Part shown: positions 48,438 through 50,815 of the stretch, one piece after another
Layout: each line of letters starts with the position of its first letter
How positions within the stretch are numbered: position 1 is the stretch's first letter
Origin: Escherichia phage Ecwhy_1
Length of the DNA stretch: 64,000 nt
Strand: one strand, 5' to 3'
Sequence record: MH791411.1
Notes under the pieces: generated by a model
Seen by the model: only the letters and a program-made list of their open reading frames with translations
Database searches by the model: none
What the model was told of the DNA's origin: nothing
Translations under genes and position numbers: made by a program

Positions 48438-49274
48438 ATGGCAATGAACCCACTAGCTAAGTATACTAAAATTGAAGAACTTGGTACAAAATTGGTCACA
48501 AATGGCGTGATTCCTTATAAAGAAGGAGTTCTTGGCTCTAAAGGTATCAAATGTGGCATTTGTGCTCGTAGTGCACGCGATGAAATGACACTCAATACAC
48601 CAGATATGCTTCTAAATGGTGATGCAATTGCTCGTGTTATTGAAAACTGCGTACCTAACGTACTTGATGCAGATGAACTTTATGTAAATGACGTAGAGCA
48701 ACTACTTATCGCTATTAAAGTAGCTTCTAAAGAAGAATCATATGATATTAATGTGACATGTCCTGAATGTAACAAAGAAGGCCGTTTTGAGCGTAGCTTA
48801 TCATATCTACTAGAAACAGCACAAACTTTCAGTGAAGTTCCTACTGTACAATTGGATAATGGACTAAGTTTAGAGTTTAGACCACTTACTTGGAAGGAAT
48901 ATTCTAACTTCGCAGAAAGAATGTTTACAGAACAACAAAAAACTAAATTCCTTGAAACTGCCGAAATGGAGCAGGAAGAAAAAGTTAAAGTGTTTGGTGA
49001 AGTATTTGAAAGTATGGCACAACTCAACTTTGATATGATCGCAGGAGTTATTGCTAAAGTAATTACTCCTGAAGGTGATGAAGTAACTGAAAACGAATTC
49101 ATTGCTGAATGGCTAGGTCAGCAGTCCAAAGGAACACTTAAAATAATTCGTGAAAAAATGGATGAAGTACTTGAAATTGGTGTTTCCCATACTATGGAAG
49201 TTGAATGCAGTGACTGTAATCATCAATGGGAAATTAATGGACTGAAATATGACCCAAGTCATTTTTTCGCATAA
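48438..49274 (+). CDS. zinc-ribbon-containing structural/assembly protein, unknown
   Basis: Start at MAMNPLAKY with GGAG RBS; three CxxC pairs (CGIC, CPEC, CSDC). Confidence 0.5.
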   Translation: MAMNPLAKYTKIEELGTKLVTNGVIPYKEGVLGSKGIKCGICARSARDEMTLNTPDMLLNGDAIARVIENCVPNVLDADELYVNDVEQLLIAIKVASKEESYDINVTCPECNKEGRFERSLSYLLETAQTFSEVPTVQLDNGLSLEFRPLTWKEYSNFAERMFTEQQKTKFLETAEMEQEEKVKVFGEVFESMAQLNFDMIAGVIAKVITPEGDEVTENEFIAEWLGQQSKGTLKIIREKMDEVLEIGVSHTMEVECSDCNHQWEINGLKYDPSHFFA

Positions 49275-49483
49275 TGCTTCTCCACTCATCTCCTGAAGAA
49301 ATACAAGAAGTACTTAAGGAATTTGAGTTGAATAAGTCAGATATTAAAACTGCATTAATGGAGTGTTCTGTTTATATGGAAAGTGTTGATTACGGAACAC
49401 TACTTAATATGCCACTAATTGATAGAGACTTATTAGTTAAGTCTTTTAATAAGAAAATTAAAAAACAAAACGAGAAGCACTAA
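49274..49483 (+). CDS. hypothetical small protein (69 aa)
   Basis: Coupled start/stop with upstream ORF. Confidence 0.35.
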   Translation: MLLHSSPEEIQEVLKEFELNKSDIKTALMECSVYMESVDYGTLLNMPLIDRDLLVKSFNKKIKKQNEKH

Positions 49484-49494
49484 CTCACAAGGAG

Positions 49495-49523
49495 CCAGCA
49501 CATTGTTGCTGGTTTTTTTTTTT
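49495..49523 (+). terminator. rho-independent terminator (CCAGCA-cattgt-TGCTGG + T11)
   Basis: Perfect hairpin followed by 11 T residues. Confidence 0.65.
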
Positions 49524-50323
49524 GGTTTTAAACTACAGAATTGATTGAATTGAATTATGAAAGGAATTAATTATTTTATAGTGAACTCATCTAACTCATT
49601 TCATTCGTTAGCTGAAGAATATTCGTTACTACGTAACTCATATTCATTTCTTATAATTAATTATAAAGAACTTTAAAAGATTTAATACTTGACGGGATTT
49701 GTTGAAGACATTTTCATCCCCCCGCAGGGGAATGAAGACAATAAAAAAGAGACAATTAAGTCTCTTAATTCTTGACGCTGATGGTTTCAGCATTTATTGT
49801 ATTGCGAATTTCTTAAAATTCATTAAGAACGAAAGCGGGTTGCTCTGTTTCTCTCTATCGCAGTCATGTGCAACGGTCGTCAGTCTTAATCATCCTGACA
49901 CTCACCTGAAAGTCTATACAATCAAACTTCAGGCTGTTTATTAAATCACTTAATAAACTCCCTTAGCAAATCTGGTAAGGTGCGATCCTTATACATCTAT
50001 CGAGGAACTCTCTGTATGCTTATCGGAGTTCTTTATTGAGCCGTGTCGCCGTGAGGGGTTCAAACTATGCCCACATCTAACGGGTTTCTTCTGCTCATCG
50101 CACTGTTGAACTGCTCATCTGCCATCTACATTTTCGATAGGATCAGGTTCTAATTTATATGCATTTCTGCATTCAACAGGATTGTCATCACTACAATTAA
50201 CATTATAGCACCAAATTCAAAAGTGTCTCACTATTATGATAAAAAATTTATAAAAAGTACATAATTCTTGAACATTGAAGTAACGCATAAATATTTTGAT
50301 AAGAATTAGTTTAGTGGGGATTT

Positions 50324-50815
50324 ATGAAGAAAAGATTAAAAGATAGTAAAGAAGCTGCAAACTATCGAAATGAATTACTAAAGAAGCAAAAAGGAATTGA
50401 TCCTATAATTAAGGAACCAATCACTAAGCCAGTACTTGATCACTATCACTTCGAGAATCAACACTGTCGTGAAGTTCTCCAGAACGAAGTGAACGCATGG
50501 GAAGGTAAAGTACAGAACAGCTTTAATCGCTATATGAAGCACTTAACCGATAAACCCTTATACGAGGTACTACGAAATCTTGCGGATTATCTGGAGCGTA
50601 ATAACAGCATTCCTGAAGATGAGCAAGTTATACATCACACTGCACTAACAATCGATACGAATAAGTTTAAAAGGCTCCCAGCAGGACAACAGAATGCAAT
50701 ACTGGAAGAGTTAGGTGTTATCCCTGGTGCAAACAATGCTGCTCGTGTTAAGCAAGCCAGAAAGCTTATCAAGGAAGGCAAATTAAATATGGTAGATATA
50801 AAAAAAGGGAGCTAA
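50324..50815 (+). CDS. Endonuclease VII-like protein (T4 gp49 family-like His-Me finger core, zinc Cys apparently absent)
   Basis: 163 aa; PVLDHYHFENQHCREVLQNEVNAWEGKVQNSFNRY aligns by eye to EndoVII core LDHDHE...CNLCNAAEG...FNR. Confidence 0.5.
   Translation: MKKRLKDSKEAANYRNELLKKQKGIDPIIKEPITKPVLDHYHFENQHCREVLQNEVNAWEGKVQNSFNRYMKHLTDKPLYEVLRNLADYLERNNSIPEDEQVIHHTALTIDTNKFKRLPAGQQNAILEELGVIPGANNAARVKQARKLIKEGKLNMVDIKKGS

Follow-up and report, generated by a model that had tools for sequence, protein, structure and literature searches.

Large "ornate" RNAs of phages and prophages, namely ROOL and GOLLD, have been shown to be RNA-only assemblies (PMC12286853), and in PA5oct, a jumbo phage related to the one considered here, the long non-coding RNAs (lncRNAs) ncRNA001-004, from 0.24 to 0.62 kb, were defined by RNA-seq, two of them being very abundant (PMC7318152). 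In the present study, we analyzed positions 49484-50323 of a 64,000-nucleotide (64-kb) stretch of Escherichia phage Ecwhy_1 (MH791411.1), below called the window, which belongs to a 121Q/PBECO4-type jumbo myovirus (Asteriusvirus, "Rak2-like" group). At positions 49300-50500, the identity is 99.9% to Escherichia phage fEgEco12 and about 90% to 121Q. An initial annotation had described this 840-bp gap between genes as a structured non-coding region, possibly with small RNA gene(s), a replication origin or iteron-type binding sites, or a remnant of a mobile element. We consider it very probable that the gap contains a structured RNA gene on the minus strand. The suggestion of an RNA gene was thus right in kind, although the locus appears to hold one large pseudoknotted RNA with a promoter and not several small RNAs. 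The family appears to be undescribed and to lie outside any known RNA family, because no Rfam 15 match, annotation or paper was found for it in the libraries searched.

The RNA gene is supported by the preservation of base pairing among homologs. Compensatory changes were already present in the alignment of the paralogous copies, and RNAalifold predicted 83 pairs from 23 non-redundant homologs, 46 of them with double (compensatory) changes. In alignment A2, counted after the addition of a pseudoknot from an unbiased covariation scan, 97.2% of the cells were paired (41-45% in slid controls) and 50 of 89 pairs had double changes (8-20 in the controls). Alignment A3 consists of 38 non-redundant sequences, including metagenomic and bacterial homologs, with a mean column identity of 49%, and its model has 19 helices and 95 pairs, including two pseudoknots, PK1 and PK2. 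In A3, 92.4% of the cells were paired as compared with 38-46% in slid controls, double changes were seen in 67 of 95 pairs as compared with 24-33, and the covariation score was 0.465 as compared with 0.06-0.10; none of 500 shuffles reached any of the observed A3 measures. All six pairs of PK1 have compensatory changes (99.6% paired in A3), PK2 is 100% paired in all A3 sequences with double changes in three pairs, and helix P11 has double changes in five of five pairs. The modelled pairs include 335 G.U and U.G combinations and 85 A.C and C.A combinations (302 and 53, respectively, if the poorly aligned P14 is left out). Because G.U pairs exceed A.C pairs, the RNA sense is the minus strand. The folding z-score of the 508-nt core is -3.4 relative to shuffles. 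Compensatory pairing above controls, an own promoter and a defined strand are properties that the locus shares with structured non-coding RNA genes in the generic sense. Its features, in coordinates of the window, are as follows.

~50195 to 49690, probably on to ~49590, minus strand: RNA gene (covariation, conservation).
50224-50229, minus strand: -35-like hexamer GAGACA (promoter scan).
50202-50210, minus strand: extended -10 element TGcTATAAT, with TATAAT at 50207-50202 (10/12 matches, TG present).
50142-50197, minus strand: predicted transcription start (~50195, from the -10 spacing) and variable 5' leader with a small hairpin.
49936-50141, minus strand: 5' domain, helices P2-P8, with P3 and P5 also within it (RNAalifold and pair counts on A2 and A3).
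50141-50136/50126-50122, minus strand: helix P2.
50097-50093/50041-50037, minus strand: helix P4.
50031-50026/50010-50005, minus strand: helix P6.
49991-49987/49980-49976, minus strand: helix P7.
49958-49954/49940-49936, minus strand: helix P8.
49771-49935, minus strand: 3' core domain, P9-P14 with PK1 and PK2 (covariation counts).
49933-49926/49913-49905, minus strand: hairpin P9, whose loop forms PK1.
49922-49916 (P9 loop) with 49802-49796, minus strand: pseudoknot PK1.
49900-49895/49883-49878, minus strand: helix P10.
49874-49870 (GUUGC) with 49843-49839 (GCAAC, in the P12 loop), minus strand: pseudoknot PK2.
49862-49858/49807-49803, minus strand: helix P11.
49855-49851/49835-49831, minus strand: helix P12.
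49829-49825/49814-49810, minus strand: helix P13.
49793-49787/49781-49775, minus strand: helix P14.
49777-49771, minus strand: first CGUCAAG motif.
49741-49766, minus strand: optional terminator-like hairpin AAGAGAC-UUAAUU-GUCUCUU with a U6 run; the stem covaries (helix 18).
49713-49736, minus strand: universally conserved G/C hairpin UUCAUUCCCC-UGCG-GGGGGAUGAA with a U.G wobble (helix 19).
49688-49712, minus strand: 3' tail AAAUGUCUUCAACAAAUCCCGUCAAG with the second CGUCAAG motif at 49694-49688 (conservation).
49590-49650, minus strand: degenerate 3' extension block AUGAAUAUGAGUU-hairpin-AACGAAUAUUCUUCAG-CUAAC..GUUAG (alignment to other copies).
49501-49477 with a T-rich tail to ~49467, minus strand: terminator-like site (terminator scan).
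49489-49518 and a T-run, plus strand: terminator of the upstream plus-strand genes (terminator scan), as the initial annotation had noted.
49274-49483: small gene (phrog_18291), rated real, at one edge of the gap.
50240-50323, plus strand: upstream region and ribosome-binding site of the EndoVII gene, outside the RNA unit.
50324-50815: EndoVII gene (phrog_423), at the other edge of the gap.

The promoter (50229-50202) is of the sigma-70 type, with 16 nt between GAGACA and the -10 element. The -35 consensus of the family is tGgAAC/TGAAAC; the arrangement of tGgAAC, about 16 nt and TGTGnTATAAT was found at the same position in 35 of the 38 non-redundant homologs, and TG.TATAAT is at least 90% conserved in A3. 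Phages CBB and GAP32 were reported to have "divergent RpoD-like" promoters with a TGAAACG-type -35 element, and the predicted promoter of the RNA is of the same class (PMC5259590). It is also present in copies in bacterial islands (see below), where the host polymerase alone is available. Judging from the spacing from the -10 element, transcription would start near 50195, and the 5' leader that follows is variable in sequence across the homologs. About 500 nt of the RNA form two domains, each with several helices, that are tied together by the two pseudoknots. Within the 5' domain, most or all pairs of P2, P4, P6 and P8 show compensatory changes in A2 and A3, and the joining strands GAAAAUGUA, CAGAUGAG, AUAAAG, GAUAGA.AUAUA and UAAGGGAG are invariant. 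The 3' core is the most conserved stretch and contains the invariant GACCGUUGC and GAGAAACAGAGCAACCCGCUU. The stretch 50240-50323 is not conserved together with the RNA in other contexts. Two helices proposed by RNAalifold were rejected: a 5'-3' closing helix (GAUG with CGUC) lacks support, since it is invariant and two to five homologs break it, and RNAalifold helix 8 (GCUAAGG with CCGUUGC) competes with PK2, which fits the variants better (locus L068). Depending on the homolog, a hairpin module of ~25-35 nt (..UACAAUAUAGAUCCGUC..) is inserted in the P8 loop or the P13 loop (A3 columns ~470-520 and ~663-695; for example, L057, L038, L156, L078 and L099). This module is absent in the window copy and looks like a portable peripheral element.

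The hairpins pointed out in the initial annotation are all present: TTCATCCCCC..GGGGAATGAA at 49713-49736, AAGAGAC..GTCTCTT at 49747-49766 and GCTGA..TCAGC at 49777-49791. The repeated words also exist, in two copies only and not as an iteron-like array: TTAATnCTTGACG and TTGACG each occur twice with a spacing of 83 nt, and CTGCTCATC occurs twice with a spacing of 20 nt. These hairpins and words are helices and motifs of one minus-strand RNA. The reading of the second hairpin as a minus-strand terminator was formally correct, in that the hairpin 49766-49747 with TTTTTT on the minus strand meets the definition of an intrinsic (Rho-independent) terminator; the hairpin is, however, peripheral and optional, and strongly conserved sequence goes on beyond it. 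It is absent from about 13 of the 38 homologs, including paralog D of the same phage. Because it is missing in about a third of the homologs and conservation continues past it, the hairpin is not the obligatory end of the family, and it may end part of the transcripts.

The G/C hairpin and the CGUCAAG tail, which both lie 3' of the terminator-like hairpin, are among the most conserved sequences of the family, and AAA.C.CGUCA in the tail is nearly invariant. The wobble position of helix 19 is U.G in 20 homologs and C-G in 17; read on the plus strand, the wobble is a C.A mismatch. Both CGUCA(A/G) motifs change in concert (CGACA in L107, CUUCA in L115 and L140), and the change of the first motif in L107 is offset by an A-to-U change at its P14 partner. 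No pairing partner was found for the second CGUCA motif. The joint change of the two motifs hints that they share a ligand or represent a sub-structure that was duplicated. A BoxA-like similarity of the 3' tail was rejected, being not conserved across homologs.

A block of ~100 nt after the CGUCA tail is conserved in nearly all copies (L004, L005, L038, L078 and others), in the order UGAAUUGAGUU, a hairpin, AACGAAAAUUCUUUGAC, a 5-bp hairpin with a GAA-type triloop, and GGCAAAUC. The block hairpin covaries (CAUUC/GAAUG, CAUAC/GUAUG, CAAUC/GAUUG and CUAAC/GUUAG), and copies that face a convergent gene run into a terminator after the block. We infer that the block belongs to the same transcript. 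Just before it is GUAUAAU/GUAUAAAU, which is similar to a -10 element or to a T4-late-type TATAAATA promoter. The AT-rich spacer that follows the RNA on its 3' side in the window has a (GAATT)x4 tandem at 49538-49556 and TAACTCAT-type words that recur within 49588-49651; both are probably part of the degenerate 3' block. Read-through RNA could end at the minus-strand site 49501-49477. The RNA would thus be at least 0.45-0.5 kb and probably ~0.6-0.7 kb long, with a predicted transcript from ~455 to ~700 nt.

When the 840 bp were compared with 50,697 phage records by sensitive blastn, 70 records matched, and every one is a jumbo phage of the same clade. The initial annotation had stated that an ordinary protein gene at this place in related genomes would speak against it; none was seen, and the relatives carry the same non-coding element. 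Distant genera (GAP32, CBB, fHe-Yen9-04, Serratia BF, Erwinia pEa_SNUABM, Xanthomonas XbC2/XaC1, Munch and others) align only over query positions ~187-682 of 840, with 68-76% identity, and the flanking protein genes are unaligned. There are four to five matching places per genome, and two in RaK2 and K64-1; the 64-kb window has one copy only. The near-identical, unannotated TH47 has four copies on the same strand, at 49.4, 146.0, 261.9 and 345.5 kb, which are mutually 72-80% identical, and the copy at 261.9 kb corresponds to the window copy. Copy A adjoins the EndoVII gene, copy B a gene for an RNA polymerase sigma factor (a RaK2 copy is syntenic) and copy D a DNA methyltransferase gene, and copy C lies between small hypothetical genes. 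Among the 31 homologs with enough flanking sequence, the downstream gene was co-oriented in 20, convergent in nine and absent in two. Paralog B lies directly downstream of the phage sigma-factor gene (L098, fEgEco12 306-309 kb; the RaK2 counterpart is L007, 190-193 kb) and lacks the TATAAT promoter carried by the other copies. Paralog B may be ancestral to the other copies, and it may share a transcript with the sigma-factor gene. HNH homing-endonuclease genes (L098 1716-2510 and L099 3933-4544) are found 0.5-0.8 kb from paralogs B and C, behind other open reading frames (ORFs); these genes, and EndoVII (His-Me finger) beside copy A, were judged to be incidental.

The family is also found outside phages. 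A degenerate 25-nt core pattern matched seven loci when 185,579 bacterial/archaeal genomes were scanned and 46 loci in metagenomes, all of which are full-length homologs (nhmmer, E 1e-22 to 1e-142). The RNA is part of an integrative element in chromosomal contigs of Enterobacter chinensis, Silvania and Buttiauxella as well as in several metagenomic contigs. An integrase comes first (in some islands a large serine recombinase, elsewhere a shorter one), the RNA is next and has the same orientation, and after it is a CI-like repressor (helix-turn-helix and Peptidase_S24) in convergent orientation, followed by a Cro-like HTH_35 protein and small membrane proteins. In the island loci L103, L105, L109, L113, L125, L129, L152 and L153, the integrase is of the serine or tyrosine type; islands have 286-aa and 138-aa proteins after the repressor, and in some, additional cargo ORFs separate the integrase from the RNA. 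Among 5,426 complete E. coli genomes, two have a copy, in an island beside ffs (L156 is that of E. coli LR-29-1), within a 1.4-kb stretch without RefSeq annotation. No homolog was found in 72,556 plasmids. When one island was compared with phage TH47, no homolog of any island protein was found in TH47.

Four other explanations of the locus have to be weighed. That the gap encodes one or more small proteins, for instance in the plus-strand ORF of 81 aa or in small ORFs annotated in GenBank, is hardly credible. ORFs of 81 aa (49699-49944), 39 aa and 49 aa do exist, and several records annotate hypothetical proteins here. In public records the gap is treated inconsistently: it is mostly blank, some records have "hypothetical proteins" of 33-70 aa, and one (UE-S1) has a "repeat_region" feature over the RNA gene. 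The coding sequences (CDSs) annotated over the RNA gene are fEgEco12 g340/g341, SHEFM2K M2K_0516-0519, RaK2_00245 and fHe-Yen9-04 g347/g348, and they are probably spurious. Near-identical genomes have different calls, and 121Q-type records have smaller calls in place of the 81-aa ORF. Furthermore, none of the three ORFs has a Pfam or PHROG match, indels of 1 nt and 26 nt between paralogs fall within the 81-aa ORF, and no 3-nt (lag-3) substitution periodicity was seen in column variability. A conserved frame, periodicity and a family match, as expected of a protein-coding gene, were thus not found, and the original statement that the gap lacks a convincing ORF was borne out. An element acting as DNA, such as protein-binding sites, iterons, a palindromic operator or a small mobile-element remnant, is very improbable. 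It would fit the TTGACG pair 83 nt apart, the near-palindrome TTCATCCCCC/GGGGAATGAA, and the dispersed, multi-copy occurrence in unrelated mobile elements. However, pairing rather than sequence is what the compensatory changes preserve in 67 of 95 pairs, and the excess of G.U pairs, which is specific to one strand, points to RNA. Part of the first CGUCA belongs to the 3' strand of P14, and L107 has one compensatory change there. The locus has neither tandem arrays nor terminal inverted repeats, and no inverted-repeat pair brackets 49590-50231 as in a miniature inverted-repeat transposable element or an insertion-sequence remnant; the early idea of a mobile-element remnant was therefore not supported.

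The other two explanations accept a structured RNA. A replication origin had been proposed in the initial annotation. The 3' end of an origin transcript would give an R-loop or a primer, like ColE1 RNA II or the phage T4 oriF/oriG transcripts, with several origins per 350-kb genome. The sigma-70-type promoter, the structured RNA of ~550-700 nt, the G-run hairpin near its 3' end and the AT-rich DNA after it agree with this, as do the four to five dispersed copies in one orientation, and host factors would suffice, which fits the absence of a phage-encoded partner. We nevertheless regard it as quite improbable. No change in GC skew is seen at the four copies (weak evidence), none of the 72,556 plasmids has a homolog, and the island promoter is far from the repressor operator region and would fire when integrated. 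Very different replicons share a conserved pseudoknotted core in which many unpaired bases are invariant. There are no DnaA-box-like arrays. An iteron origin would have at least three direct repeats of ~17-22 bp, tandem or closely spaced, but the locus has no more than repeats of 9-20 nt in two copies and trivial tandems of AT-rich sequence, so that the iteron-type origin fell for want of tandem or multi-copy direct repeats. The remaining explanation is a cis-acting leader or processive-antitermination RNA, that is, the 5' part of a long transcript that modifies the polymerase or controls read-through or translation downstream, comparable to the phage HK022 put RNA or to a riboswitch-like leader of very large size. 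Its support is that a co-oriented ORF comes next in 20 of the 31 homologs, that in several copies the 3' block stops 5-25 nt before a ribosome-binding site and AUG, that the terminator-like hairpin lies inside the unit, and that all four TH47 copies are on the strand with most genes. On the other hand, the window copy, the syntenic copies of GAP32 and CBB and the CI-adjacent island copies face a convergent gene and are fully conserved, the downstream genes are mutually unrelated, the hairpin is missing in about a third of the homologs, and the covariation scan showed no alternative anti-terminator pairing to the terminator stem. To our knowledge, leaders of this kind are far shorter than the at least 450 nt seen here, which also counts against this explanation. 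We therefore consider a leader unlikely.

We favor, with some confidence, a stand-alone RNA gene with a trans-acting product. Action in trans is suggested because conservation is full where the next gene is convergent or absent (9 + 2 of 31) and because the neighboring genes are mutually unrelated. In this model, the host sigma-70 RNA polymerase would transcribe the RNA early in infection, the island copies would be transcribed by the host polymerase in uninfected cells, and the folded RNA itself would be the active product, with multiple copies raising its dosage. Since the island and TH47 share no protein and the neighbors vary by copy (EndoVII, sigma factor, methyltransferase, serine or tyrosine integrases), the partner would be a host component conserved among Enterobacterales, with the RNA as a decoy, sponge or scaffold, or there would be no partner, as for a ribozyme or an RNA-only assembly. 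Two related ideas were rejected. A guide or partner RNA (retron, DRT, IscB/TnpB omega RNA or IS110 bridge RNA) has no support, as there is no constant protein neighbor, and as for sequence-level mimicry of a host RNA, the only matches in the 5,426 E. coli genomes are the two island copies.

Several points weigh against a stand-alone, trans-acting RNA. The transcript and its ends are predictions, and the 3' end is ambiguous, with candidates at the internal hairpin (~455 nt), the conserved tail (~505 nt) and the distal terminator (~700 nt). The folding z-scores, although significant, do not discriminate between the strands (-3.4 and -3.3), and a single-stranded-DNA structure that tolerates G.T pairs is formally possible. 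The co-oriented gene after 20 of the 31 homologs, often 5-25 nt past the 3' block, fits a leader, and the trans-acting mechanism through a host factor was reached by elimination.

Large pseudoknotted RNAs with many invariant unpaired bases are rare, and the large structured RNAs that have been solved are ribozymes, ribonucleoprotein cores or RNA-only assemblies. More tentatively, the family may be a new class of ornate RNA of ~0.5-0.7 kb without a dedicated protein, which could be a ribozyme, a self-assembling particle or a high-copy decoy of a conserved host machine, and thus a portable RNA-only module in phage-host or phage-phage conflict. If so, it would be used alike by lytic jumbo phages (two to five copies, early) and by integrative islands of Enterobacterales. 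Its multi-copy presence in lytic jumbo phages and its sharing with islands unrelated in protein content suggest a general, protein-independent role in infection or conflict. Because the RNA occurs in E. coli phages that can be cultivated (121Q, PBECO4, phAPEC6, fEgEco12 and others) as well as in an E. coli chromosome, genetics, pull-downs, probing and cryo-EM are feasible, and most orphan large RNAs lack such experimental access. In addition, at least 70 GenBank phage records, in which the loci are blank or have spurious small ORFs, could be corrected.

Comparison with known RNAs supports the family as a separate one. The searches suggested in the initial annotation gave no assignment: no Rfam 15 family reached its gathering score and ARAGORN found no tRNA or tmRNA in the whole window. 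With permissive E-values, the best Rfam 15 matches of a 3-kb region and the 533-nt core were far below the gathering score (E 0.0015-10) and are artefacts driven by terminator hairpins, and when 10 homologous loci were scanned at the gathering threshold, the host ffs gene was the sole match. Rfam families including ROOL, GOLLD, RNase P, tmRNA, group I/II introns, 6S and riboswitches thus did not accommodate the RNA. A resemblance of short stretches (such as ACGACC.GUUGCA and GACGGGAUUUG) to RNase P or tmRNA received no support from covariance models and was dropped. The genome papers of fEgEco12, UE-S1, Sharanji and CBB do not mention the RNA, and no description of it was found in the literature searched by phage name, topic and sequence motif.

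The resemblance to ColE1 RNA II consists of a sigma-70 promoter, a structured RNA of ~550 nt, a G-run near the 3' end and the use of host proteins only. The present RNA differs in lying in integrated islands, convergent with its neighbors, and in lacking plasmid homologs; no conserved antisense (RNA I-like) promoter was found, and the homologs do not conserve the promoter-like sites that the window has on its plus strand. The plasmid replicons and the antisense RNA I promoter that characterize an RNA II-type origin are thus both missing. The 8-mer CUCGUCAG would be common with RNA II, which is within chance expectation. Like the put RNA of HK022, the RNA is located just after a promoter and before a terminator-like hairpin, mostly before co-oriented genes; unlike it, the RNA is ~6-8 times larger and is conserved also without a co-oriented gene. 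The PA5oct RNAs ncRNA002 and ncRNA004 (451 and 619 nt; L101 and L102) have no detectable similarity to the family (nhmmer --max, E up to 10). Because these lncRNAs are dissimilar, jumbo phages of the wider clade carry more than one kind of unexplained large RNA.

ROOL and GOLLD are precedents for the broad kind of object, namely large orphan RNAs carried by phages. In common with them, the present RNA is at least 0.5 kb long, has pseudoknots and many conserved unpaired bases, is borne by phages or prophages, has no adjacent dedicated protein gene and has no known function. However, the Rfam models of ROOL and GOLLD match it in neither sequence nor structure. Furthermore, the hosts of ROOL and GOLLD are Lactobacillales and rumen and lake bacteria, whereas this RNA belongs to Enterobacterales and jumbo myoviruses, where it is not located beside tRNA genes and is present in multiple copies per genome.

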